Source: Escherichia coli (GTDB lineage Bacteria > Pseudomonadota > Gammaproteobacteria > Enterobacterales > Enterobacteriaceae). From it: a stretch of DNA of 64,000 nt. Position 1 is the first letter of the stretch, and each line of letters opens with the position of its first letter. Below are positions 1 through 47,544 of this stretch, in pieces. The DNA is taken from the NCBI RefSeq assembly GCF_016026235.1, contig NZ_CP065613.1. One strand, 5' to 3'. Under the pieces are notes generated by a model. That model was not told where the DNA came from. It saw only the letters and a list, made by a program, of their open reading frames with translations, and made no database searches. The position numbers and the translations under genes were made by a program.

Positions 1-705
1 TCGCCGACGCCGGACGAACCGGGCCATACTCTGGGCGGCTACTCACAACAGATCGTCGTTCATGAGCGATATGTTCTGCGTATTCGTCACCCGCAAGAGC
101 AGCTGGCGGCGGTGGCTCCTTTGTTGTGTGCAGGGATCACCACGTATTCGCCGCTACGTCACTGGCAGGCCGGGCCGGGTAAAAAAGTGGGCGTGGTCGG
201 CATCGGCGGTCTGGGACATATGGGGATCAAGCTGGCCCACGCGATGGGGGCGCATGTGGTGGCATTTACCACTTCTGAGGCAAAACGCGAAGCGGCAAAA
301 GCCCTGGGGGCCGATGAAGTTGTTAACTCACGCAATGCCGATGAGATGGCGGCTCATCTGAAGAGTTTCGATTTCATTTTGAATACAGTAGCTGCGCCAC
401 ATAATCTCGACGATTTTACCACCTTGCTGAAGCGTGATGGCACCATGACGCTGGTTGGTGCGCCTGCGACACCGCATAAATCGCCGGAAGTTTTCAACCT
501 GATCATGAAACGCCGTGCGATAGCCGGTTCTATGATTGGCGGCATTCCAGAAACTCAGGAGATGCTCGATTTTTGCGCCGAACATGGCATCGTGGCTGAT
601 ATAGAGATGATTCGGGCCGATCAAATTAATGAAGCCTATGAGCGAATGCTGCGTGGTGATGTGAAATATCGTTTTGTTATCGATAATCGCACACTAACAG
701 ACTGA
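1..705 (+). CDS. yahK: Zn-dependent alcohol/aldehyde dehydrogenase (MDR family), C-terminal part; 5-prime end lies outside the window
   Basis: Frame is open from base 1 to the stop at 703-705; Rossmann motif GVVGIGGLGHMG; conserved position upstream of yahL. Confidence 0.85.
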   Translation, partial: SPTPDEPGHTLGGYSQQIVVHERYVLRIRHPQEQLAAVAPLLCAGITTYSPLRHWQAGPGKKVGVVGIGGLGHMGIKLAHAMGAHVVAFTTSEAKREAAKALGADEVVNSRNADEMAAHLKSFDFILNTVAAPHNLDDFTTLLKRDGTMTLVGAPATPHKSPEVFNLIMKRRAIAGSMIGGIPETQEMLDFCAEHGIVADIEMIRADQINEAYERMLRGDVKYRFVIDNRTLTD

Positions 706-947
706 AAAAATTAATAAATACGCTGTGGTTTAACATATTAACTTCGCTCTCCACTTAACTTTTTAGTTAAGGAGAGCGAAATAATATCAAAGTAGCAGTA
801 AAACCTATAACGTAAATTCAAATTGTTAAATTAACTCCCTCCAGTACACAATACTTCACACGTTAGTTATGAGCGATTTCTGATAGTGCCTGGTTTAATC
901 AGCGCTTTATTATCTGCGACGTTTATTTTTATTTAAGAGAGATCGCG

Positions 948-1763
948 ATGATATCATTAAAAGCTCCGCACAATAATTTGATGCCATATACGCAACAAAG
1001 CATACTTAATACGGTTAAAAACAATCAGTTACCAGAGGATATCAAAAGCTCCCTGGTTTCCTGTGTCGATATATTCAAGGTTTTGATTAAACAATATTAT
1101 GATTATCCTTATGATTGTCGTGATGATTTAGTCGATGACGACAAACTCATTCATCTCATGGCTGCCGTACGAGACTGTGAGTGGTCAGACGATAACGCAC
1201 TCACCATAAATGTGCAGTTTAATGATTTCCCAGGATTTTATGACTGGATGGATTACCCTGATCACCCGGTTAAGTTTGTTTTTCGCATACTTGAAAATCA
1301 AAAAGGGACAGTTTGGGTATATGACCAGGATGATGCGTTTCTTGATATTAAAGCAAATGTGCAGGCTGGACGCTTTACCGGGCTTAAGAAATTAGTGCAG
1401 TTTATCAATTCAGTGCGAACAGATTGCAAATGTATTCTTCTTGAACGCCATATGCCTTTGCTGAGACTTTTCCCTAAAGGGAAAGAGTGTATCCATGTGG
1501 AAAAATGGCTTCGCGAAATGTCGTCTATGCCGGAGACAGACGCGCCCATTAAGCAGGCGCTTGCGCATGGATTATTATTACACTTAAAAAATATCTACCC
1601 TGTTTTTCCTGAATCACTGGTGATGTTATTGCTCTCTGTTCTGGACGTAAAAACATACAGAGATGATGCGCGATTAAATCAATGGATAACTAATAGAGTG
1701 CAGGAATTAGGTGACAGATATTATCCTGTAAATAAGCACGTTAAAATCCGCTACACTCTTTAG
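948..1763 (+). CDS. yahL: Hypothetical protein YahL (271 aa), no recognisable domain
   Basis: 271-aa ORF in a markedly AT-rich segment, preceded by an AT-rich leader; size and position match yahL. Confidence 0.75.
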   Translation: MISLKAPHNNLMPYTQQSILNTVKNNQLPEDIKSSLVSCVDIFKVLIKQYYDYPYDCRDDLVDDDKLIHLMAAVRDCEWSDDNALTINVQFNDFPGFYDWMDYPDHPVKFVFRILENQKGTVWVYDQDDAFLDIKANVQAGRFTGLKKLVQFINSVRTDCKCILLERHMPLLRLFPKGKECIHVEKWLREMSSMPETDAPIKQALAHGLLLHLKNIYPVFPESLVMLLLSVLDVKTYRDDARLNQWITNRVQELGDRYYPVNKHVKIRYTL

Positions 1764-1989
1764 TTCAGAAAGGGTTCCACCTGCAAGTTGTTATTCCACC
1801 AGAGAGTGAATCGCAATGCAGGTAATCATTTCATCTGTATATCTGTATGCCAACTGGCATTCCATCTCTTTTTTCGCCGATATTTTGTTGTGATCGGCGA
1901 CACTTCGCTTAAAAAAACACCAGCAGTGGTTTCGCAGCTATGCGGTGTATAAAAAATGATCTTATGCAGATGTTTTGTGAATGTGTGGG

Positions 1990-2017
1990 TTGACATTCAT
2001 ATGAAAAAAATCATAAT
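1990..2017 (+). promoter_or_regulatory. Candidate sigma-70 promoter (TTGACA, 16-bp spacer, CATAAT) upstream of yahM
   Basis: TTGACA at 1990-1995 and CATAAT at 2012-2017 read directly from the sequence; not tested. Confidence 0.3.
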
Positions 2018-2175
2018 TCCATCATGTTTGTGTGGGGTCTTTTCTGTATCTTACGCATCGCACTCAAGCCTGACAGAAAATATGCTGTAAGGCTCATATC
2101 AAAAACCGCCATTAGCTCATCAGGAAGAGCAGACGACAACCAGGATTGTTGTATGGTACGGGGTTCGAGGCCTCG

Positions 2176-2421
2176 ATGGCGGTCCAACTTTTCAAAACTC
2201 TTCTGAATCAGATCCCCTTATTATCATCCCTGCAAAGTGGAACATTGCCATTGTTTGGCTATTCAGGACGGGTCAGACCAATGAAAAAAGCCCACACAGG
2301 GGAGAGTGGGCTGAAATGGGAAGCTAAAGACTCAAGTAAACTTATCGGAAATAAGGACCACGCATTACGGGGGCTATCATCGCCGATGGTCGGGATTCGG
2401 CAAATCAGGTTGATTACGTAG
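2176..2421 (+). CDS. yahM: Small hypothetical protein YahM (81 aa)
   Basis: ORF 2146-2421 with an internal ATG at 2176 giving the 81-aa product MAVQLFKTLLNQ...; start choice uncertain. Confidence 0.5.
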   Translation: MAVQLFKTLLNQIPLLSSLQSGTLPLFGYSGRVRPMKKAHTGESGLKWEAKDSSKLIGNKDHALRGLSSPMVGIRQIRLIT

Positions 2422-2437
2422 AGAGTAAATTATCTGC

Positions 2438-3109
2438 TCACCGCTGCGTCACCCCTTCGTAAATCAGGCGTAGCGCGAATACACCAATAATTGCACCAAT
2501 AACCCGACTGGCAACGCGTTGCATACGCCCATAAGCACGACGCACAGCGGGCAAAGAAAACGCCTGACTAAGAAAGACTCGCCAGATAATTGATGCGAGT
2601 ACAATCCCCGCCCAGGCCATTAAACGTGCCCATGTTGGTGTTTCGGCATTTAATGTTACTGAGAAAATACTAATAAAAAATAAAACGGTTTGCGGGTTAG
2701 AGAGATCGGTAATTAATCCGCGGCGAAAAAAGACATACCAGGGGGCGTTAATCGGTTGTTGTAGTGTGCTCATTTGCGGTGTTGACTGGCGGCGCATGCT
2801 GCACCACGCAAACCATAAGAGATAAGCGCCGCCGACGATTCTGATAAGCGAAAAAATCTCCTCACACTGCGTAATTAGTGTTGCAAGACCAAACAAACCC
2901 AACCCGGAATAAAATGCATCGCCCAGCGCCACGCCCAGCCCGGTCAGCACCCCTGCGCGTCGACCGGAAGCCAGGCTGGTTTGTACTACCACAAAGAGAT
3001 TGGCTCCCGGATTAAAAAAAGTAATCACGAACAGTCCTACGGTCAGGTAAACGGCGTGCAAAGGATCCATAGTGATTTCATCCATAAATAAGTGAACTAA
3101 CTTCATCAT
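2438..3109 (-). CDS. yahN: LysE/RhtB-family amino-acid exporter (223 aa)
   Basis: 223-aa hydrophobic multi-helix ORF; conserved position between yahM and yahO. Confidence 0.85.
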   Translation of the reverse strand: MMKLVHLFMDEITMDPLHAVYLTVGLFVITFFNPGANLFVVVQTSLASGRRAGVLTGLGVALGDAFYSGLGLFGLATLITQCEEIFSLIRIVGGAYLLWFAWCSMRRQSTPQMSTLQQPINAPWYVFFRRGLITDLSNPQTVLFFISIFSVTLNAETPTWARLMAWAGIVLASIIWRVFLSQAFSLPAVRRAYGRMQRVASRVIGAIIGVFALRLIYEGVTQR

Positions 3110-3255
3110 ATTTCTACCAAAAATAATCGGGTGCGAGAGAGATCACAAAGTGTCTTATTTCCGGTTACTGGCGTTTATGCCCTGACTGAACTAATTATTA
3201 ATCAACCCAATAATGTCGGTGGGTGATAGTGTGATAACAACTCTGGAGCCGTAAT

Positions 3256-3531
3256 ATGAAAATAATCTCTAAAATGTTAGTCGGTGCGTTAGCGTTTGCC
3301 GTTACCAATGTCTATGCCGCTGAATTGATGACCAAAGCGGAATTTGAAAAAGTTGAATCGCAGTATGAAAAAATAGGTGATATTTCAACCAGCAATGAAA
3401 TGTCGACTGCAGATGCAAAAGAAGATTTGATCAAAAAAGCGGATGAAAAAGGGGCTGATGTGTTGGTACTGACCTCCGGTCAAACTGACAATAAGATCCA
3501 CGGCACGGCAAATATTTATAAGAAGAAGTAA
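3256..3531 (+). CDS. yahO: Small periplasmic DUF1471-family protein (91 aa) with signal peptide
   Basis: N-terminal signal peptide [21 protein letters not shown]; 91 aa. Confidence 0.85.
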
Positions 3532-11045: not shown

Positions 11046-11693
11046 GTATTGTCGGATGCGTCGCGTGGCGCATCCGACACCATGCGCCGATGCCTGATGC
11101 GACGCAGACGCGTCTTATCATGCCTACAGGCCTGAACCGTAGGTCGGATAAGGCGCTCGCGTCGCATCCGACACCCCGCGCCGATGCCTGATGCGACGCT
11201 GGCGCGTCTTATCATGCCTACAGGTCTGAACCGTAGGTCGGATAAGGCGCTCGCGCCGCATCCGACACCGTGCGCCGATGCCTGATGCGACGCAGACGCG
11301 TCTTATCATGCCTACAGGTCTGAACCGTAGGTCGGATAAGGCGCTCGCGCCGCATCCGACACCATGCGCCGATGCCTGATGCGACGCAGGCGCGTCTTAT
11401 CATGCCTACAGGCCTGAACCGTAGGTCGGATAAGGCGCTCGCGCCGCATCCGACACCGTGTGCCGATGCCTGATGCGACGCTGATGCGTCTTATCATGCC
11501 TACAGGCCTGAACCGTAGGTCGGATAAGGCGCTCGCGCCGCATTCGACACCATGCGCCGATGCCTGATGCGACGCAGGCGCGTCTTATCATGCCTACAGG
11601 CCTGAACCGTAGGTCGGATAAGGCGCTCGCGCCGCATCCGACACCGTGCGCAGTTGCCTGATGCGACGCTTACCGCGTCTTATCATGCCTGCC
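11046..11693. repeat. Tandem BIME/REP array, about 7 copies of a 94-bp unit
   Basis: Unit cgcatccgacacc...gtaggtcggataaggcgctcgcg recurs at 11069, 11163 and then every 94 bp; this produces four spurious 61-aa ORFs. Confidence 0.85.
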
Positions 11694-11844
11694 CACTGTT
11701 TTTACACCGATAATTTTTCCCCCACCTTTTTGCACTCATTCATATAAAAAATATATTTCCCCACGAAAACGATTGCTTTTTATCTTCAGATGAATAGAAT
11801 GCGGCGGATTTTTTGGGTTTCAAACAGCAAAAAGGGGGAATTTC

Positions 11845-13104
11845 GTGTCGCAAGATAACAACTTTAGCCAGGGGCCAGTCCCGCAGTCGGCGCGGAAAGG
11901 GGTATTGGCATTGACGTTCGTCATGCTGGGATTAACCTTCTTTTCCGCCAGTATGTGGACCGGCGGCACTCTCGGAACCGGTCTTAGCTATCATGATTTC
12001 TTCCTCGCAGTTCTCATCGGTAATCTTCTCCTCGGTATTTACACTTCATTTCTCGGTTACATTGGCGCAAAAACCGGCCTGACCACTCATCTTCTTGCTC
12101 GCTTCTCGTTTGGTGTTAAAGGCTCATGGCTGCCTTCACTGCTACTGGGCGGAACTCAGGTTGGCTGGTTTGGCGTCGGTGTGGCGATGTTTGCCATTCC
12201 GGTGGGTAAGGCAACCGGGCTGGATATTAATTTGCTGATTGCCGTTTCCGGTTTACTGATGACCGTCACCGTCTTTTTTGGCATTTCGGCGCTGACGGTT
12301 CTTTCGGTGATTGCGGTTCCGGCTATCGCCTGCCTGGGCGGTTATTCCGTGTGGCTGGCTGTTAACGGCATGGGCGGCCTGGACGCATTAAAAGCGGTCG
12401 TTCCCGCACAACCGTTAGATTTCAATGTCGCGCTGGCGCTGGTTGTGGGGTCATTTATCAGTGCGGGTACGCTCACCGCTGACTTTGTCCGGTTTGGTCG
12501 CAATGCCAAACTGGCGGTGCTGGTGGCGATGGTGGCCTTTTTCCTCGGCAACTCGTTGATGTTTATTTTCGGTGCAGCGGGCGCTGCGGCACTGGGCATG
12601 GCGGATATCTCTGATGTGATGATTGCTCAGGGCCTGCTGCTGCCTGCGATTGTGGTGCTGGGGCTGAATATCTGGACCACCAACGATAACGCACTCTATG
12701 CGTCGGGTTTAGGTTTCGCCAACATTACCGGTATGTCGAGCAAAACCCTTTCGGTGATTAACGGTATTATCGGTACGGTCTGCGCATTATGGCTGTATAA
12801 CAATTTTGTCGGCTGGTTGACCTTCCTTTCGGCAGCTATTCCTCCGGTAGGTGGCGTGATCATTGCCGACTATCTGATGAACCGTCGCCGCTATGAGCAC
12901 TTTGCGACCACGCGTATGATGAGTGTCAATTGGGTGGCGATTCTGGCGGTCGCGCTGGGGATTGCCGCAGGCCACTGGTTACCGGGAATTGTTCCGGTCA
13001 ACGCGGTATTAGGTGGCGCGCTGAGCTATCTGATCCTTAACCCGATTTTGAATCGTAAAACGACAGCAGCAATGACGCATGTGGAGGTTAACAGTGTCGA
13101 ATAA
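11845..13104 (+). CDS. codB: Cytosine permease (NCS1 family), 419 aa, GTG start
   Basis: 12-TM transporter, 419 aa, immediately upstream of and overlapping codA. Confidence 0.9.
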
Positions 13105-38353: not shown

Positions 38354-38402
38354 ATACTATAGGGGGGTATGCTATATGTCAATACATACCCCCCTATAGT
38401 AT
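38354..38402. promoter_or_regulatory. Candidate FrmR operator: two perfect 17-bp inverted repeats with G6/C6 tracts
   Basis: ATACTATAGGGGGGTAT at 38354-38370 and ATACCCCCCTATAGTAT at 38386-38402, immediately upstream of frmR. Confidence 0.7.
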
Positions 38403-38445
38403 ATAACACTGGAGAATAATTGTTGTCCGAAGCCTAACCAGGTGA

Positions 38446-38473
38446 ACGGTCCCTCAAGACAGATGGGGACCGT
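38446..38473. other. Hairpin acggtccc/gggaccgt immediately downstream of afuC; possible transcriptional insulator between the afu cluster and the frmR promoter
   Basis: 8-bp stem with 12-nt loop; no clear U-tract on the afu strand. Confidence 0.3.
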
Positions 38474-38486
38474 TTATGTGCTATTT

Positions 38487-39533
38487 TTATGCCGCATCCG
38501 CTAAAACAAACATCCCGTAAGGATGGATTTCGAGGTAATAGTGCTCACCAATATCGGGCTGTAAACGGGTGGCGTTTACTTGTAATAAAATCTCCTGTCC
38601 ATGCCACTCTACGGTCACTTCGTACTGCGGCCCCATGTAGGCGACATGGCGAATAACACAACGCTGACTCTCTTCGCCGTGATTGCTTAAGGTGATGGCT
38701 TCCGGGCGAACGCCGACGGTGCCGCTACCTTGCGCCGGGAAATGCGCCGCGCGCGGCAGGCGATAACCGTAGATATCGACATACTCTTCGCTAAAGTTCG
38801 CCGGGAACAGGTTGGCGTCGCCCATAAAACTTGCCATAAAGCGGGAGGCTGGCTGACGATAGAGCTCCTGCGGTGAGCCAATCTGCATGATGTGACCTTT
38901 ATTCATCACCAGCACAGTGTCGGACACCGCGAAAGCTTCACTTTGATCGTGAGTGACGTAGAGCGACGTGATATTAAACTGCTTTTGCAGCTCGCGGATC
39001 TTATCGCGCATACTGCGGCGCAGGTTGGCATCGAGGTTACTTAACGGCTCATCAAACAGCAGCACCTTTGGCTTGAGGATCAACGCGCGGGCCAGTGCCA
39101 CTCGCTGTTGCTGACCACCGGAAATCTGATCGACATAGCGGTCCTCGAAGCCTTCCAGATCCACCATTGCCAGCGCCTCCTTCACCCGCTGTTTCACTTC
39201 GCTACGCGAGACGCCAAGCATCTTCAGCCCGTAGCCAACGTTTTCACCCAGCGACATATGCGGGAACAGAGCGTATGACTGAAACACCATGCAGATATCG
39301 CGCTGTTGAATGGAACGATGCGTGACATCTTCGCCATCAATAAAAATTTGCCCTTCGCTCGGTTTTTCCAGCCCGGCAACCAGACGCAAAATGGTGGTTT
39401 TGCCACAGCCGGAAGGACCGAGCAGCGTCACCATTTGCCCTTGTGGAATGGTGAGATTGATATTGTCGATAACCGTATTACTGCCGAATCGTTTAGTGAC
39501 GTTGCGCAGTTCAACAAAATTTTTCTGACTCAT
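38487..39533 (-). CDS. afuC: ABC transporter ATP-binding subunit (AfuC/FbpC-type), about 348 aa
   Basis: Walker [13 protein letters not shown] signature [12 protein letters not shown], Walker B LLFDEP; start at MSQKNF, with an alternative ATG at 39545 overlapping the afuB stop. Confidence 0.85.
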
Positions 39534-39544
39534 ATTGCGCTCCA

Positions 39545-41623
39545 TTACGCCTGGTTTTTGGCTTTAGAACGGGAGATACGAGCTTCTCCGATCAGCCAGT
39601 CAAAGAGGAAAATAATCGCCAGCATCACCACGATCAGAATCGAACCATAGGCGATGGCTACGCCATATTCGCCGTCTTCAACGCGGTTAAGAATGTAGGC
39701 GGTTGCCACGCGGGTGTCCGGCGTGACGAGAAAGACGATGGCGCTGACCGTCGTGATGGCCCGCACAAAGCTGTAGATCAGGGCCGAGAGAATGGCCGGA
39801 CGCAGCAGCGGCAGTAAAATGTGGGTTATGGTTCGCAAGGAACCCGCGCGCAGGCTGAGTGAGGCTTCATCCAGCGATTTGTCGATCTGCCCCAGACCCG
39901 CAATCCCGGCGCGAATACCCACCGGAACGTTACGCATCACCATCGAGATAATCACAATTGCCGCCGTTCCGGTGAGATAAACCGGAGCGCTGTTAAAGGC
40001 AAGAATATACGAAACGCCCGCCACCGTACCCGGTACGGCAAAGCACAGCATGGTGGTGAACTCGATGGTCTTTTTGCCTTTGAATTGTTGACGCACCACC
40101 ACCCAGGCGATGAGCAGGCCAAAGATAGCGGTAATGGGAGCGGCAATCCCGGCGTAGAGCAGGGTATCCAGCAGTGAAGGCCACGCGCCGTCGCTCATTC
40201 CCTGACCAAATAGCTTGATAAAGTTATCCAGCGTCAGGGTGTAGTCCACGCCCCAGTTCACCGTGAAGCTGCCGTAGAAAATGCTGCCGTAGAGCAGGGC
40301 GTTAAAGGCAATCCATATCGCAAGTATGGCGACCACGCTCCACACCAGGGTGACCGGTAGCGGCTGGACGTCGCCACGGTAGGATTTGCCGGAAACCGTG
40401 ACGTAAGAGCGTTTACCAATCCACATATACTGGATGCAGAACACCAGCAGCGAGAACAGCAGCAGGAAAGCGCCAAGGGTGCTGGCGGCCTGATAATCCA
40501 GCTGCGAGCCGGTAATATAGAAGTAAATTTGCGTCGCCAGTACGTCGAAGTTACCGCCAAGTACCAGCGGGTTACTGAAATCAGCCAGTGACTGTACCAC
40601 GACGATTAAAAAGGCATTGGCGAGTGCGGGCTTCAACAACGGCACAAACACGCCGTTAAAGGTTTGCCAGCGGCTGGCGCGCAGGGTGTAGGAGGCCTCT
40701 TCCAGCGAGGGATGAATGGTTTTAATGGCCCCGTCGAGGATCATAAATGCCATTGGCGTGAATGCCAGAACCTGTGCCAGCCAGATCCCGGTAAAACCGT
40801 ACAGCCAGTTGGTGTTGGTCAGCCCAAACCACTCCACCATAAATTCCGTAACATAGCCGGAGCGCCCCATCATGAGCGTCACGCCTAAGCCGACCACAAA
40901 CGGTGGCGTAACGATGGGCAAAATGGAAAAGATGCGACCAATAATGGCGCTGCGTTTAGCGATGCGCGTGGTATAAATCGCCAGCACCAGGCCGAAGAAA
41001 GTACAGCCTATCCCCACCGCTATCGACAAGACGATAGAGTTGACGATCACCTGAACAATATGTGCCTGCGAGAGCACGGTCATAAACGCCAGCGGGGCGA
41101 ACTCTCCCGCGTCGTTGGTGAACATCGGGATAAAAATGGCGATGCTCGGCCAGACGATAAAAATGCCAATCAGCGCCACAATCGCAATCAGTGAGCCGAT
41201 CACGAAGCGGTCGCCACCCAGCCATTCGAGGCGGGTTAAGGCCAGCGTCATAATCGCGCCTAGTTCGACAAACAGCACGATGGCGGCGTAGCCTAAACCG
41301 CGTCCAACCACGGTGGCGCTGATGACGATAAACGCCATACAGAGCAATGCCCAGCCGGCATCGAAATAATGACGGCTACGTTGTTCGCGCGTGGCCTCAC
41401 TAAACGGGCGGACCAGCAACAGGCTCGGGAGTAAATACCACAGCCAGCTGATATTAAAATGCGACCAGCCGTACGCCCCGAGGATCTCATCACTCGTGGA
41501 CTCCAGCAGGCCATAATCGAGGCTCCAGCTCGGCAACAGTATAAATGCCAGCCAGCCCAGCAAAACCCAAAGGAAAATCGCATCCCGCTTTTTCACGGGA
41601 TGGAGTGCAAGTGTCTGTGACAT
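39545..41623 (-). CDS. afuB: ABC transporter permease, fused two-domain type (AfuB/FbpB-like), 692 aa
   Basis: 692-aa polytopic membrane protein with duplicated permease domains; lies between afuA and afuC. Confidence 0.85.
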
Positions 41624-41691
41624 AGCAGTTCCGGTATGGTTGGCCGGGGCAGGCGTTTGTGCTGCACCCGGAAAATACGCCTAATGCGGGT

Positions 41692-42723
41692 TTATTTACC
41701 CATCTTCACTTCGCTGACCCATTTATTAATCAATGCCTTACGAACATCCGTGGAACCATATTTATCCATGTCGTAGTTGATTAATTTCAGGTCGTCGAGC
41801 TTCAGTGAATTTGGCGACGTTTCGGCGGTGGTATTGGTCAGGATCTGATAAGACTTCCCTTTCTTCCACGCCAGTTCCTGAGCTTCTTTTGATAATACCC
41901 AGTCCACAAACAGTTTGGCGTTGTCGAGGTTGCGCGCGCCTTTCAGAATGCTGACGCCGCCAATTTCGTAGCCTGTACCTTCACACGGGGAAATCAACTC
42001 CAGCGGCGCGCCCTGTTCTTTTTCCAGCGAGTAGTCATGCAGGAAGCCAATACCAATCGCCGTTTCGCCACGGGCGGCGTTACGTGCCGGGGCTATGCCT
42101 GATTTGGTGTACTGAGAGACGTTGGCGTTCAGTTGTTTTAGATAATCAAAGGCCTGATCTTCCCCCCACAGCTGCGCAAAAGTAGCCAGGGCGGTGTAGG
42201 CAGTACCGGAACTTTGCGGATCGGCAATTTGAATTTCGCCTTTATATTCCGGTTTGGTGAGATCTTTCCAGCACTTCGGCACCGGCAGGTTTTTCTCTTT
42301 CAGACGATCGGTGTTTACGCCAAAACCGAGGATCCCCACATAAACGGCAGAGGACAGATTCCCTTTCACTTTTGCCGGATCGCGGAATTTCTCCATGATC
42401 TGCTCAAGGTTAGGGGATTTATACGCCTGTAGCAGGCCCATCTCGCCAGCCTGCGATTGTGGGTCTAAAGTGCCGCCGTACCAGACGTCAGCCTGGGGGT
42501 TTTTCTTTTCAGCATCGACTTTTGCCAGGGTGCTTCCGGAACCGTTGCGGATAAACGAGGTTTTTACATCATATTTCTCGCCAAACGCTTTGGTTTCGGC
42601 CTCACACATTTCATTGGTGGCGCTGCAATAGACCACCAGCCGGCCTTTTGCCTGCGCGGCACCCGTTAAAGTCGCCAGCGCAACGGCAGAAGCAATCAGA
42701 GTAGAGGTAAAGGTCATTTTCAT
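41692..42723 (-). CDS. afuA: Periplasmic substrate-binding protein (AfuA/FbpA-like), 343 aa
   Basis: Signal peptide MKMTFTSTLIASAVALATLTGAAQA; start at 42723, overlapping the stop of the upstream MFS gene by 2 nt. Confidence 0.8.
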   Translation of the reverse strand: MKMTFTSTLIASAVALATLTGAAQAKGRLVVYCSATNEMCEAETKAFGEKYDVKTSFIRNGSGSTLAKVDAEKKNPQADVWYGGTLDPQSQAGEMGLLQAYKSPNLEQIMEKFRDPAKVKGNLSSAVYVGILGFGVNTDRLKEKNLPVPKCWKDLTKPEYKGEIQIADPQSSGTAYTALATFAQLWGEDQAFDYLKQLNANVSQYTKSGIAPARNAARGETAIGIGFLHDYSLEKEQGAPLELISPCEGTGYEIGGVSILKGARNLDNAKLFVDWVLSKEAQELAWKKGKSYQILTNTTAETSPNSLKLDDLKLINYDMDKYGSTDVRKALINKWVSEVKMGK

Positions 42724-44036
42724 TGTTTTATCCTTCGAGCGTGAGTGGTGGTGATGCCCGCCATCAGTAACGGCATCAGCAGTAAACCCATAAGTACTGC
42801 GGCGACCGAGAGTAAACTGAACATTCCCGGCCAGCCGTAGCGTTCGATGACCAGCGACAGCGGCCAGCCTGCCAGCGCTGCGCCAAGGTAAGCGAACAGG
42901 CCGAGAAATCCGGTGATTGAACCCGCCGCAGCTTTGTGCCCACACTCCACCGCCGCAAGTCCAATCAGCATTTGTGGGCCAAAGACGAAAAAGCCCACGG
43001 TAAAAAAGCACACTGCCAGCAGAGCGTAGTGATGAACCGGTGCCAGCCACAGTGCGGCGACTGACACCATCAACCCCAACGTGAACAGCAAAATCATTGG
43101 CGCTCGTTGCCCGCTAAACAGCAAATCCGATCCCCATCCGGCAAATAACGCGCCGAGTAAGCCGCCCACTTCAAACAGCATTACCGTGGCGTTGGCGCTG
43201 AGCAGGTTGACACCGTGGCTTTCCGTCAGCCAGATATTGCCCCAGTCGTTAAGCGCAATCCGGATCACATAAACCAGTACATAAGAGACGCCCAGTAGCC
43301 AGATCAGCGGATTTTGCAGCATGGTGGTGCGCAACATTTGCCACAGCCCCATCGGCGGACTTTGTTGTTCCTGACGTAACTCCAGCGGATCGTGACGCCA
43401 GTGACCAACTGTCGGTAATCCCTCTTCCTGGGGCGTGCCTTTGAGTTGTAGCGTTAACCAGATCCCTAATGCCATGCTGATTATCCCCGGTGTCAGCATC
43501 GCGGCCTGCCAGCCCCACCAGTGGGCGGCAAAGGCGCTAATCAGCGGAATAATCGCTCCGCCAATGTTGATCGACATATTCCAGCAGCCCCACCAGAAAC
43601 CGCGCTCATTGCGTGAGTACCAGTGGGTCAGCAAGCGGGCACACGGTGGCCATCCCCAGCCCTGAAAAAAACCGTTCAGTGTCCAGACCACAAGCAGAAG
43701 CGTAAGTGATTCGCCAAAGGCAAACACCACGTTCAATAACCCGGTGGCGAACAAGCCGACGCCCATAAAACCGCGTTGTCCGTGGCTGTCATGCCACAGT
43801 CCGGCGGTAAATTTCGACAATCCGTAGCTGAGATAAAACAGCGAACCCAGCAGGCCAATGTCGCCTTTATCCAGTCCGAGGTCGGTTTGTAGCGCCGGAA
43901 GGACGTAATTCACGCTTTTTCGCGTCAGATAAAATGCGGCGTAGCCAATAATCATGCACATCAGCAATCGCGGACGTAATGTCCGGTAGCATTGATCAAT
44001 TTCTCTCGCTGAACGCGCGTGCATGGTTGTCTCCAT
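42720..44036 (-). CDS. UhpC-like MFS sugar-phosphate sensor/transporter, 438 aa
   Basis: MFS organophosphate:phosphate antiporter family; UhpC-like blocks FFQGWGWPPCARLLTHWYSRNERGFWW and FFVFGPQMLIGLAAVECGHKAAAGSITGF. Confidence 0.8.
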   Translation of the reverse strand: METTMHARSAREIDQCYRTLRPRLLMCMIIGYAAFYLTRKSVNYVLPALQTDLGLDKGDIGLLGSLFYLSYGLSKFTAGLWHDSHGQRGFMGVGLFATGLLNVVFAFGESLTLLLVVWTLNGFFQGWGWPPCARLLTHWYSRNERGFWWGCWNMSINIGGAIIPLISAFAAHWWGWQAAMLTPGIISMALGIWLTLQLKGTPQEEGLPTVGHWRHDPLELRQEQQSPPMGLWQMLRTTMLQNPLIWLLGVSYVLVYVIRIALNDWGNIWLTESHGVNLLSANATVMLFEVGGLLGALFAGWGSDLLFSGQRAPMILLFTLGLMVSVAALWLAPVHHYALLAVCFFTVGFFVFGPQMLIGLAAVECGHKAAAGSITGFLGLFAYLGAALAGWPLSLVIERYGWPGMFSLLSVAAVLMGLLLMPLLMAGITTTHARRIKQ

Positions 44037-44108
44037 GTTGCTGACTATATGAAAATGAAAGTGAAAGGGGATGAGAGAAAATCCGGGATACCTAAGACTT
44101 TTTCCTGG

Positions 44109-45650
44109 TTATCCGGCGATTTGTTGCAAAAATGTGGGCAAGTTAACAATTACCCGCGTGCCGTGCTGTTTTTCGAGCGTTAAGTCGCCGCCCAGGGCGC
44201 TGACGCGCTCACGCATCCCCTGAATGCCAAATCCGGCCATTTTCCCGCTGGCGATCCCCACACCGTTGTCGCTGACTTCCAGATGCAATACCTCTCCCTG
44301 CTGGCGCAGGATAATCGTCACTTCGCTGGCTTCGGCGTGTTTACAGATGTTATTGAGCAACTCCTGCAATAACCGATACAAGGTAAAGCGCACCGTTTCG
44401 TTTTCTGGTGTGGAGTTCAGTTGATAGGCAAACTGGCAATGAATGCCGCGTTCACTAAAGGCAAATTCATTAATCAGATGCAGCAACGCTTCGCGAAATG
44501 TCAGTTCATCAAGCGCGGGAGGCCGCAACTGGCGCAGCAATTGGCGGGTGGAGAGATGAATGCGGCGGGCGAGCTCATTGATTTGGCTGGCTGCGGATTG
44601 AATTTGCGCCGGATCACGCGCCCGCTTCACCAGTTGCGACTGGATCTGAATGGCGGTGATGTTCTGACCGATTTCGTCGTGCAGCTCTCGCGCCAGGTTT
44701 TTTCGCGTGTCCTCCTCGGTGTGGATCAGCTTTTCCGCCAATGCCCGCCGCGCTGCCAGCTCGGCCTCCAGCCGTTGTCGGTAATGGTGCAGGTTTAGCG
44801 CCAGATGTTGCTGGCGACTGATGGCAATGCCCAGGCCAATTCCCAGCAAGGCCTGGGTCGCGAGGAAAATCTCCAGCTCCACCAGGTTACTAAAGCCCAC
44901 GCCAATCTGGCGGGCGATGGTGATCATCATGCTGCCCAAAAGCCCGGAGAGTACGCCACCTTGCCAGCCAAATTTCCACGCCATCACCACATTGGGCAAA
45001 AAGACCACGATCAACAGCAGACGTTCAATTTCAGGTGACAGCACCATCTGAGTGCCGATACCAATAATAAAAAACAGGCTACACCAGATGATTAAAGAGG
45101 TACGCAAGGGGGGATTATGCGTATCGAGTCCCAGGAGCTGGTAGCGATGCTGCTGGCGCAGAAACTCAAAGATAAGATAGACAAACGGCGTCAGTAATAC
45201 GCCGCCGGTAAATGAGGTCAAACCCGGCAGCATTATTGGGCCTGACATAAAAGGGGAGAGCAGGGCGGTATTCAACAATGAAGCTGCCGTGACAGTGGCT
45301 AACAGCAACGTCAGACGCTGCCAGTAAAGTGGAAAACGGTGCCAGAAGTTTTGCGCGAGGAGGACAGGAAACAGGCTAATAACCGGCGTTGCCAGCATGA
45401 GATAACCGTTCAATAGCTGTTCACTATGGAGCCAGAACATCATCAGCAAAGGGGGGAGCACCAACGCAGGCCAGTAGCGGCGAGAGAGCAAAATAACAAG
45501 GGCGAGATAAACTCCCTGCGGGAGAAACAACACCGCCTGTTGACCGTTATTGGTCAGATAAAAGCTGAGCGTCCACAGCATCAGCCAGCCGGTTCCCCAG
45601 GCCAGCACAATAAACAGCGAAATCACCCAATGACGAAGATTGCGCGACAT
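44109..45650 (-). CDS. UhpB-like sensor histidine kinase (polytopic N-terminal domain, HisKA_3, HATPase), 513 aa
   Basis: H-box LARELHDEIGQ, C-terminal ATPase (EVSDNGVGI ... GFGIQGMRERV), about 8 TM helices. Confidence 0.8.
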   Translation of the reverse strand: MSRNLRHWVISLFIVLAWGTGWLMLWTLSFYLTNNGQQAVLFLPQGVYLALVILLSRRYWPALVLPPLLMMFWLHSEQLLNGYLMLATPVISLFPVLLAQNFWHRFPLYWQRLTLLLATVTAASLLNTALLSPFMSGPIMLPGLTSFTGGVLLTPFVYLIFEFLRQQHRYQLLGLDTHNPPLRTSLIIWCSLFFIIGIGTQMVLSPEIERLLLIVVFLPNVVMAWKFGWQGGVLSGLLGSMMITIARQIGVGFSNLVELEIFLATQALLGIGLGIAISRQQHLALNLHHYRQRLEAELAARRALAEKLIHTEEDTRKNLARELHDEIGQNITAIQIQSQLVKRARDPAQIQSAASQINELARRIHLSTRQLLRQLRPPALDELTFREALLHLINEFAFSERGIHCQFAYQLNSTPENETVRFTLYRLLQELLNNICKHAEASEVTIILRQQGEVLHLEVSDNGVGIASGKMAGFGIQGMRERVSALGGDLTLEKQHGTRVIVNLPTFLQQIAG

Positions 45651-46279
45651 TAATGCCCCGCCAGCAGATGGTGGTCGAGCGCAAAATGTACCAGTTCAAT
45701 GGTGCTATGGCAGTTCAGTTTTCCCAGCACATTGGCGCGATGCACATGTACCGTTTTATGACTGAGTTCGAGTTTAAAGGCGATCTCTTTAACGCTGTCT
45801 CCTTTGACCAGTAAATCAAACACTTCACGTTCTCGTGGGGTGAGAATTTCCAGCGCCTGGGCGGGTTGCCCGCCGCCGCGTAAAGCCCGAATCGCATCGG
45901 CACAGAGATAATGCCCGCCCAGCCCGACCGAGCGCACCGCCTGCACTAACTCTTCCGGCCCACAGCGTTTGGTTAAATACCCGCTGGCACCGGCATCCAG
46001 CGCGCTTTGCACAAAGGTTGGCGCGTCATAAATGCTAAGAATAATGGCGCGAAATTGCGGTTTTTGTGCACGCAGGCGCTTAAGCAAACTGAGGCCGTTT
46101 TCGTCCGGCATGGCAATATCAATGACGGCAACATTGACGTCATCACGGATTAATGCCGACCATGCCTGCGCGGCACTACTGTACTGACCAATGACCTCCA
46201 GATCGTCTTCCAGAGAGAGTAATTGTGCGAAGCCAGAGCGCACCACCACATGGTCATCCACCAGCACTACCCGAATCAT
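45650..46279 (-). CDS. UhpA-like response regulator (NarL/FixJ family, LuxR-type HTH), 209 aa
   Basis: Receiver domain VVLVDDHVVVRSGF ... DIAMPDENG; C-terminal LTPREREVF ... SHKTVHVHRANVLGKL. Confidence 0.85.
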   Translation of the reverse strand: MIRVVLVDDHVVVRSGFAQLLSLEDDLEVIGQYSSAAQAWSALIRDDVNVAVIDIAMPDENGLSLLKRLRAQKPQFRAIILSIYDAPTFVQSALDAGASGYLTKRCGPEELVQAVRSVGLGGHYLCADAIRALRGGGQPAQALEILTPREREVFDLLVKGDSVKEIAFKLELSHKTVHVHRANVLGKLNCHSTIELVHFALDHHLLAGH

Positions 46280-46581
46280 ACTTTTCTTCTCTTATTATCT
46301 AATTCTCCTATCATGCATCACGGCGCGGCGCTGGCAATCAACCAGCGACAGATATGGAATGGATGTAACAAAATGGCAATAATTTGCCGGAGCGCGCACA
46401 TCTTATCTGGCTTGTGAACCGGCGGGATACGTTCGCCAAAACCGCAAAATGCGCAAACTCGCTAACCATTGCCGATTTTTTTCTAAAAACGCTTTGTTCT
46501 TAACAAGACCTTTTAATTCCTTTATCAAACTGACCCGCAACGAAATACTGCTCCCATAACAAGACAGGGGAGCAGACAATC

Positions 46582-47544
46582 ATGGCAATTTCATCGCGTA
46601 ACACACTTCTTGCCGCACTGGCATTCATCGCTTTTCAGGCACAGGCGGTGAACGTCACCGTGGCGTATCAAACCTCAGCCGAACCGGCGAAAGTGGCTCA
46701 GGCCGACAACACCTTTGCTAAAGAAAGCGGAGCAACCGTGGACTGGCGTAAGTTTGACAGCGGAGCCAGCATCGTGCGGGCGCTGGCTTCAGGCGACGTG
46801 CAAATCGGCAACCTCGGTTCCAGCCCGTTAGCGGTTGCAGCCAGCCAACAGGTGCCGATTGAAGTCTTCTTGCTGGCGTCAAAACTGGGTAACTCCGAAG
46901 CGCTGGTGGTAAAGAAAACTATCAGCAAACCGGAAGATCTGATTGGCAAACGCATCGCCGTACCGTTTATCTCCACCACCCACTACAGCCTGCTGGCGGC
47001 GCTGAAACACTGGGGCATTAAACCCGGGCAAGTGGAGATTGTGAACCTGCAGCCGCCCGCGATTATCGCTGCCTGGCAGCGGGGAGACATTGATGGTGCT
47101 TATGTCTGGGCACCGGCGGTTAACGCCCTGGAAAAAGACGGCAAGGTGCTGACCGATTCTGAACAGGTCGGGCAGTGGGGCGCGCCAACGCTGGACGTTT
47201 GGGTGGTGCGCAAAGATTTTGCCGAGAAACATCCTGAGGTCGTGAAAGCGTTCGCTAAAAGCGCCATCGATGCTCAGCAACCGTACATTGCTAACCCAGA
47301 CGTGTGGCTGAAACAGCCGGAAAACATCAGCAAACTGGCGCGTTTAAGCGGCGTGCCTGAAGGTGACGTTCCGGGGCTGGTGAAGGGGAATACCTATCTG
47401 ACGCCGCAGCAACAAACGGCAGAACTGACCGGACCGGTGAACAAAGCGATTATCGACACCGCGCAGTTTTTGAAAGAGCAGGGCAAGGTCCCGGCTGTAG
47501 CGAATGATTACAGCCAGTACGTTACCTCGCGCTTCGTGCAATAA
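46582..47544 (+). CDS. tauA: Taurine-binding periplasmic protein, 320 aa
   Basis: Signal peptide, NMT1/SsuA-like binding protein; first gene of tauABCD. Confidence 0.95.
   Translation: MAISSRNTLLAALAFIAFQAQAVNVTVAYQTSAEPAKVAQADNTFAKESGATVDWRKFDSGASIVRALASGDVQIGNLGSSPLAVAASQQVPIEVFLLASKLGNSEALVVKKTISKPEDLIGKRIAVPFISTTHYSLLAALKHWGIKPGQVEIVNLQPPAIIAAWQRGDIDGAYVWAPAVNALEKDGKVLTDSEQVGQWGAPTLDVWVVRKDFAEKHPEVVKAFAKSAIDAQQPYIANPDVWLKQPENISKLARLSGVPEGDVPGLVKGNTYLTPQQQTAELTGPVNKAIIDTAQFLKEQGKVPAVANDYSQYVTSRFVQ

Follow-up and report, generated by a model that had tools for sequence, protein, structure and literature searches.

The subject of this work is a six-gene cassette of Escherichia coli in which a UhpABC-like signalling triad is joined to an AfuABC-type ATP-binding cassette (ABC) importer. 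It lies in a stretch of 64,000 nucleotides of contig NZ_CP065613.1 (RefSeq assembly GCF_016026235.1), the whole of which we call the window. An earlier note on this DNA had placed six minus-strand genes between frmR and tauA; all six open reading frames (ORFs) are found in the ORF list of the window at 38487-46279 and are annotated as genes in identical or near-identical RefSeq genomes, with the divergent tauA on one flank and frmR on the other. In their order on the minus strand, the genes are:

45650-46279, minus strand: fusR (Z0463/ECs0418), UhpA-like response regulator of the NarL/GerE type, 209 amino acids
44109-45650, minus strand: fusK (Z0462/ECs0417), UhpB-like membrane histidine kinase, 513 amino acids
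42720-44024, minus strand: z0461 (ECs0416), UhpC-type protein of the major facilitator superfamily (MFS), 434 amino acids; alternative start at 44036 (438 amino acids)
41692-42723, minus strand: afuA (Z0460/ECs0415), periplasmic sugar-phosphate binding protein, 343 amino acids
39545-41623, minus strand: afuB (Z0459/ECs0414), fused two-domain ABC permease, 692 amino acids
38487-39533, minus strand: afuC (Z0458/ECs0413), ABC ATPase, 348 amino acids; longest ORF 38487-39545, 352 amino acids

For afuC, the RefSeq annotation and a GGAG ribosome-binding site favour the start at 39533 over that of the longest ORF at 39545. For z0461, the ATG at 44024 is favoured over the ATG at 44036 by the RefSeq annotation and by a conserved GGAG 6 nt before it, and a start at 44036 would be near-leaderless because the predicted -10 hexamer described below lies so close to it.

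The locus is already known. In the O157:H7 strain Sakai, genes ECs0413-0418 occupy the same frmR-tauA site in the same order, and the products are the same at nearly all positions: 208/209 for FusR against ECs0418, 511/513 for FusK against ECs0417, 433/434 for Z0461 against ECs0416, 343/343 for AfuA against ECs0415, 686/692 for AfuB against ECs0414 and 346/348 for AfuC against ECs0413. The cassette is E. coli O-island 20 (OI-20), that is, EDL933 Z0458-Z0463, comprising afuABC, z0461 and fusK/fusR. Because all six products are 99-100% identical to those of ECs0413-0418 and Z0458-Z0463, the finding is the rediscovery of a characterised locus, and its earlier presentation as a fresh candidate does not hold: OI-20 has been published with FusKR, described as responding to fucose and repressing ler, z0461 and the fuc genes. 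Sit et al. (2015) assigned afuABC to OI-20, where FusKR, the system of Pacheco et al. 2012, is its neighbour (PMC4546632); in reviews (PMC11644481) and in a transcriptome paper, Z0462 and Z0463 bear the names fusK and fusR, and z0461 is described as an MFS gene related to fucose import; OI-20, AfuABC and FusKR are treated in PMC4546632 and PMC11644481. The fusK allele of the window differs by about 0.4% from that of enterohaemorrhagic E. coli (EHEC) O157:H7 and is identical to that of non-O157 strains, e.g., 88-3493 and FDAARGOS_943. What the present analysis adds is modest and twofold: a PuhpT-like promoter in front of z0461-afuABC and the breadth of the six-gene synteny.

The importer half of the cassette can be read with the help of solved structures. 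AfuA matches the AfuA of Actinobacillus pleuropneumoniae (PDB 4R72-75) with E = 1.5e-169 and the 8X1A protein with E = 1.7e-173, and its identity to the chains, taken in input order, is 76% for 4R72 and 79% for 8X1A. In the alignment with 4R72 and 8X1A, residues S62, T174, H229, D230 and E253 correspond to S37, T150, H205, D206 and E229 of the A. pleuropneumoniae protein, and all five are invariant. These are the residues through which the latter contacts glucose-6-phosphate (G6P), and mutating the last three abolishes binding (PMC4546632). The orthologous systems of A. pleuropneumoniae and Citrobacter rodentium import G6P, fructose-6-phosphate (F6P) and sedoheptulose-7-phosphate (S7P); for that of C. 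rodentium, more than 83% identical, uptake was established by isothermal titration calorimetry and growth assays, and afuA matters there for transmission (PMC4546632). As for the other two subunits, single-domain permease models match AfuB in two stretches, best at about 199-399 (ModB) and 485-674 (sulfate permease), and AfuC reaches 699.5 bits on NCBIfam PRK11432, above its cut-off of 496. The AfuABC-type assignment of the earlier note is thus borne out, and, given the 76-79% identity to solved AfuA chains and the intact ligand motif, we infer that the AfuABC of the window is a binding-protein-dependent importer of hexose and heptose phosphates (G6P, F6P and S7P). The A. pleuropneumoniae system has the ligand residues, the fused permease and the ATPase in common with it; in the one Pasteurellaceae locus examined (Gallibacterium), afuABC stands alone and has no Uhp-like genes nearby.

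The sensory half resembles the Uhp system at each of its three steps, as had been proposed, although to different degrees: the best NCBIfam matches of the three proteins are UhpA, UhpB and UhpC, and only for the UhpC model is the curated cut-off exceeded. FusR scores 193.4 bits on UhpA (cut-off 258) and is 48% identical to the K-12 protein; it keeps D54, and the recognition segment KTVHVHRAN (residues 174-182, window ~45736-45762) is identical in FusR and K-12 UhpA. FusK scores 381.7 bits on UhpB (cut-off 408) and shares, over the full length, 35% of its residues with K-12 UhpB; it has the Pfam domains MASE1 (11-281), HisKA_3 (316-380) and HATPase_c (423-505) and an H-box HDEIGQ at residue 324. 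Z0461 reaches 589.4 bits on the UhpC receptor model NF008661 (cut-off 564) versus 214 bits on the UhpT model, and is 53% identical to UhpC versus 29% to UhpT. Both arginines of the phosphate site, the equivalents of UhpT R46 and R275, are kept in Z0461, and at the positions of UhpT D388 and K391 it has Thr and Leu, as do UhpC and the Vibrio protein introduced below. By these measures the triad is a diverged sister lineage of UhpABC, and its genes are not orthologues of the K-12 genes. In the Uhp system itself, the signal is detected by UhpC (PMC4790336).

The two halves belong together over a wide range of bacteria. A scan by AfuA alignment, with one genome per species, returned 281 species, and synteny was read from the best 80 of these 281 loci, all of which are from Enterobacterales (including Citrobacter, Klebsiella, Raoultella, Enterobacter, Serratia, Buttiauxella, Rahnella, Erwinia, Pantoea and Yersinia). 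Among these 80, every locus with enough flank shows the order fusR-fusK-MFS-afuA-afuB-afuC, so that the synteny comparison across E. coli, Citrobacter and other genomes that had been suggested gives a fixed arrangement. The earlier observation that a uhpT-like gene is missing also extends beyond the window: none was seen beside the cassette there or in the 80 related loci. The junctions are equally constrained. The fusR/fusK genes overlap or abut (-4 to +3 bp) in 75/75 loci measured, the fusK-MFS gene spacer is 84-90 bp long in 72/78 loci, and the distance from the MFS gene to afuA lies, in most loci, between -4 and +15 bp. In the window, the start of afuA overlaps the stop of z0461 (ATGA); no space remains for afuA to have a promoter of its own, and whatever controls z0461 very probably also controls afuABC. 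In many genera of Enterobacteriaceae the cassette adjoins a divergent tauA-tauB, and the frm side is not conserved.

The same six-gene order and domain content recur in a locus of the Vibrio cholerae/metoecus cluster (VCA0682-VCA0687 type), with 42-76% protein identity to the window. The Vibrio regulator and kinase are 62% and 42% identical to FusR and FusK versus 51% and 39% to K-12 UhpA and UhpB, whereas the Vibrio MFS protein is nearer to K-12 UhpC than to Z0461, and a 112-bp gap separates its gene from afuA where the window has an overlap. Moisi et al. (2013) reportedly described V. cholerae VCA0685-0687 as an ABC system for the uptake of hexose-6-phosphate with a link to UhpABC homologues; of this, the uptake function is confirmed by a citing paper. 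In Enterobacterales and Vibrio, this unit of six genes is an old one.

Upstream of z0461, in the spacer that separates it from fusK, there is a deeply conserved predicted promoter. Aligning this region from 79 loci revealed near-invariant blocks amid variable DNA, the intervening spacers having a conservation of 0.61-0.65. Four elements stand out:

44133-44148, minus strand: CRP-like site TGTTAACTTGCCCACA, within the fusK 3' end, ~103 bp upstream of a transcription start predicted near 44037
44092-44108, minus strand: UhpA-type box CCAGGAAAAAGTCTTAG, a quasi 7-3-7 inverted repeat, conservation 0.93, predicted FusR site
44067-44083, minus strand: second element GGATTTTCTCTCATCCC, consensus GGACTTTCTCTCATCCC, overlapping the -35 region, conservation 0.89
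44044-44049, minus strand: predicted -10 hexamer TATAGT, conservation 0.91, aligned with TACAAT of PuhpT

The CRP-like site is one of only two matches to TGTGA-N6-TCACA with at most 2 mismatches in 8.4 kb. It lies in coding sequence and is under extra constraint, its third-codon positions being conserved at 0.98 across 79 loci versus 0.64 for the codons just upstream; in PuhpT, it aligns with the CAP half-site region. The 17-mer of the UhpA-type box is unique in the window and occurs once on the coding strand of the cassette in 65/80 loci, 2 of which also have a match on the opposite strand. Over 11 kb of the K-12 uhpABCT region, the box has a sole match with at most 3 mismatches; it reads CCTGGAAAATTTCTTAG and falls between uhpC and uhpT, in the intergenic (promoter) region; 14/17 positions agree, and 0/200 shuffles gave a match. 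Some genera carry a perfect palindrome, CCAGGAA-AAA-TTCCTGG, and the Vibrio locus has, at the same place upstream of its MFS gene, the box CTAGGAAATATTCCTAG with the palindromic form CTAGGAA-ATA-TTCCTAG. The second element, which reads GGA(C/T)TTTCTCTCATCCC across the 79 loci, aligns with CCTGGACGCTATCTCAGGCC of PuhpT. A MAFFT alignment showed the promoter regions of z0461, K-12 uhpT, Citrobacter and Vibrio to be collinear: CRP-type site, box, CCnGGA element, TCTCA and -10 follow each other in this order, and by hand count the spacing between them differs by only 1-2 bp. Papers from the Kadner laboratory are said to place the UhpA sites of PuhpT at -80 to -32 and its CRP site at -103.5. A strong and a weak UhpA site with one CRP site upstream is the layout given for this promoter (PMC4790336).

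We infer from these features that transcription of z0461-afuABC would start at a promoter homologous to PuhpT, which depends on an activator and is recognised by FusR. UhpA may possibly recognise this promoter as well: FusR and UhpA share KTVHVHRAN and the two boxes differ at 3/17 positions, which makes cross-talk at the DNA level between the island and the core Uhp system plausible. Upstream of fusR, no further copy of the box was found within 3 mismatches. Generic promoter and terminator scans returned sites no more numerous than in shuffled controls and, as the promoter scan also missed the conserved z0461 promoter, we regard them as uninformative. Control by PhoB was considered and left unsupported: a scan of the island for CTGTCAT-N4-CTGTCAT gave best matches with 3-4 mismatches, none of them in a promoter region.

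Two further inverted repeats, read from the sequence, lie downstream in the cassette:

41624-41691, minus strand: afuA-afuB spacer with an AGGCGT...ACGCCT stem
38447-38472, minus strand: stem-loop CGGTCCC-N12-GGGACCG, right after the afuC stop

The afuA-afuB spacer is about 60-75 bp long in most loci. The stem-loop after afuC is a possible operon end; it lacks a T-run, and the terminator scan did not list it.

Put together, these elements suggest a mechanism modelled on that of Uhp. The UhpC-type Z0461 would detect an external sugar phosphate and signal to the MASE1 kinase FusK; FusK would then phosphorylate FusR, which would bind the UhpA-type box about 55-71 bp upstream of the putative start site and, together with CRP, drive a single transcript over z0461 and afuABC. 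An ABC importer would thus take the place of uhpT, and the gene of the co-sensor would lie inside the operon that it regulates. The E. coli UhpABC-UhpT system shares the three sensor components and their order, its regulator and kinase genes overlap as in the window, and the CRP site, UhpA-type box and -10 of its promoter align with those found here. The differences concern the output, which is an ATP-driven ABC importer in the window and the UhpT antiporter in Uhp; the position of the regulated promoter, before the uhpC-like gene in the window and after uhpC in Uhp; and the published signal, which for FusK is fucose. We consider such a sense-and-import mechanism fairly probable. The earlier note had named the locus as the best candidate in the window for a self-contained sense-and-import system for an extracellular phosphorylated substrate, and this proposal survives in part: the synteny, the AfuA residues, the UhpC-type MFS protein, the overlap of z0461 with afuA and the PuhpT-like promoter all speak for it, at the level of prediction, while the published fucose signal and the repression of z0461 do not.

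Several points weigh against this mechanism. The published signal of FusK is fucose and not a sugar phosphate, and the published FusR represses z0461, whose product is described as aiding fucose import, according to reviews and follow-up work (PMC11644481). This conflicts with a simple model in which FusR is an activator responding to G6P. FusK and FusR are under the NCBIfam cut-offs for UhpB and UhpA and only 35% and 48% identical to the K-12 proteins, and their signal specificity may therefore have changed. At the promoter, the box with at most 3 mismatches is missing in 15/80 loci, a simple promoter scan did not return the conserved z0461 promoter, and the transcription start, the binding of FusR and of CRP, and the co-transcription of z0461 with afuABC are all predictions from the DNA.

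The strongest competitor is the published fucose model taken by itself: FusK would sense L-fucose directly, FusR~P would repress ler and the LEE (locus of enterocyte effacement), z0461 and the fuc genes, Z0461 would be an aid to fucose uptake, and afuABC would be a mere neighbour. As the reviews and follow-up work report it, FusK autophosphorylates with fucose, and FusR~P binds the ler promoter and represses ler/LEE, z0461 and the fuc genes (PMC11644481); moreover, a 2026 study found that the effect of fucose on the LEE is lost in a fusKR deletion mutant. Nothing in our results contradicts the data on fucose and repression, and the Uhp-like mechanism and a fucose response may both be true. As a complete account of the cassette, however, the fucose model meets difficulties. 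FusK is a MASE1 kinase like UhpB, and in Uhp it is UhpC that detects the signal; Z0461 passes the UhpC model and keeps the phosphate-binding arginines, which is unexpected in a transporter of a neutral sugar; the overlap of z0461 and afuA makes shared control very probable; and a conserved box occupies the position of the activator site of PuhpT. The six genes are also found together in about 80 species and in Vibrio, and most of the cassette-bearing species have no LEE. The 29-nt FusR site reported in the ler promoter (PMC11644481) matches the box at about 8/14 positions by eye, and we judged the two not to be similar. A search of the accessible literature found no paper tying FusK to G6P, or to the regulation of afuABC beyond PMC4546632, and no G6P test of the complete triad or measurement of afuABC expression in fusKR mutants. 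The cassette itself combines a MASE1 kinase and an activator-type promoter with a UhpC-type partner whose phosphate site is kept; these features speak for a sugar phosphate as input and for a positive output, and we hold the fucose model alone to be rather unlikely.

A wider claim is that in all Enterobacterales carriers the triad would be primarily a sugar-phosphate sensor that activates z0461-afuABC from a PuhpT-homologous promoter, the fucose response and LEE repression of EHEC would be a lineage-specific addition or indirect, and there would be cross-regulation with the core Uhp system. We put this forward tentatively, as possible but short of probable.

The importer might instead take up another small phosphorylated molecule, such as 2-aminoethylphosphonate or pyridoxal-5-phosphate (PLP): in NCBIfam, the models called "putative 2-aminoethylphosphonate", PhnS2 and PhnU2, are the best matches of binding protein and permease, and AfuA is homologous to the PLP-binding protein P5PA (PDB 6WCE; E = 1.5e-109). 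The Phn scores, however, are far under their cut-offs (238 versus 393 bits and 249 versus 593 bits), AfuA reaches 567-580 bits with the two AfuA structures versus 369 bits with P5PA, and its sugar-coordinating H, D and E are intact; on these scores and ligand residues, both substrates were rejected as very improbable. Most improbable of all is a ferric-iron transporter of the FbpABC/HitABC type, the function implied by the RefSeq and Sakai names ("ferric ABC transporter ATP-binding protein FbpC", "periplasmic iron-binding protein") and by the NCBIfam model "ferric ABC transporter ATP-binding protein" that AfuC passes, since AfuA matches true ferric-binding proteins at only E ~1e-11 to 1e-12 as against ~1e-170 for AfuA, its sugar and phosphate contact residues are intact, and the annotation has been overturned experimentally (PMC4546632).

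In E. coli, the cassette is variable in its presence, as the earlier note had surmised. Its boundaries were set by blastn of an empty site, that of E. coli AVS0543, against the window, in whose coordinates the flanks of AVS0543 end at 38419 and restart at 46444:

38420-46443: variable island, OI-20 equivalent

The island is slightly narrower than the extent first assigned to it, 38403-46581. The empty site of AVS0543 (1621-1695 of the retrieved stretch) holds, between frmR and tauA, a 75-bp filler resembling a repetitive extragenic palindromic (REP) sequence, GGCCCCAGTATTTGTAGGCATGATAAGAGGCGTGAGCGTCACATCAGGC, and it is not alone: some E. coli genomes have frmR directly beside tauA, with neither the island nor the yaiO-yaiS block. 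In K-12, the site is occupied by yaiO, yaiX split by IS2, yaiP, ykiC and yaiS, as the earlier note had stated. In E. coli, the frmR-tauA site is therefore present in at least three forms: island, yaiO-yaiS block and short REP-like filler. No mobility genes or flanking repeats were seen, and the G+C content across the island (~0.50-0.60) is slightly uneven and unremarkable.

Among 5426 complete E. coli genomes, fusK was found in 519 (~10%), at 522 places and at most twice per genome, and megablast found the entire 8.4 kb in 518. The carriers include O157:H7, O55:H7 and O145:H28 as well as avian and commensal strains. An allele of fusK that is about 92% identical is present in 68 E. coli genomes, and in AST85, the one examined, it also lies at the frmR-tauA site. 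This looks like an old, recombining presence/absence polymorphism and not as if O157:H7 had recently gained the cassette in one event. According to a 2024 review, no bacteria other than EHEC O157:H7 have FusKR (PMC11644481), and an earlier one had suggested its acquisition from Enterococcus faecalis. The closest relatives of fusK come, with 72-97% identity, from genera that include Citrobacter, Klebsiella, Enterobacter and Serratia, and the statement on O157:H7 has to be corrected: FusKR is carried by about 10% of complete E. coli genomes and by many enterobacterial genera.

Some observations concern the surroundings of the island. Around a TTGACA hexamer in the frmR promoter region (38354-38405) there is a long near-perfect inverted repeat, ATACTATAGGGGGGTAT ... 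ATACCCCCCTATAGTAT, which is also present in the empty-site genome AVS0543 and is presumably the FrmR operator. On the other side, tauA (46582-47544) is an intact ORF of 320 amino acids in the window, and in the RefSeq record of FDAARGOS_943, which matches the island at 100%, it is a pseudogene with an internal stop (11283-12245 of the retrieved stretch). Finally, E. coli genomes free of the island contain an afuC/partial afuB pair about 85.6% identical to window positions 38487-39893, one copy being on a K-12-like chromosome and one on a 99.6-kb plasmid. The pair looks like a second, degraded afu locus, which we take to be the afuBC remnant of the CP4-6 prophage of K-12.

That the locus matters for gut colonisation by EHEC and Citrobacter has been published before: transmission requires AfuA, and the LEE is tuned by FusKR. 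The value that remains lies in a discrepancy that can be put to the test: sequence, synteny and promoter speak of a Uhp-type sensor of sugar phosphates that drives an ABC importer, and the published work speaks of fucose and repression. Resolving it would clarify what the "fucose sensor" detects, whether Z0461 acts as its co-receptor, and whether the FusR regulon includes afuABC.

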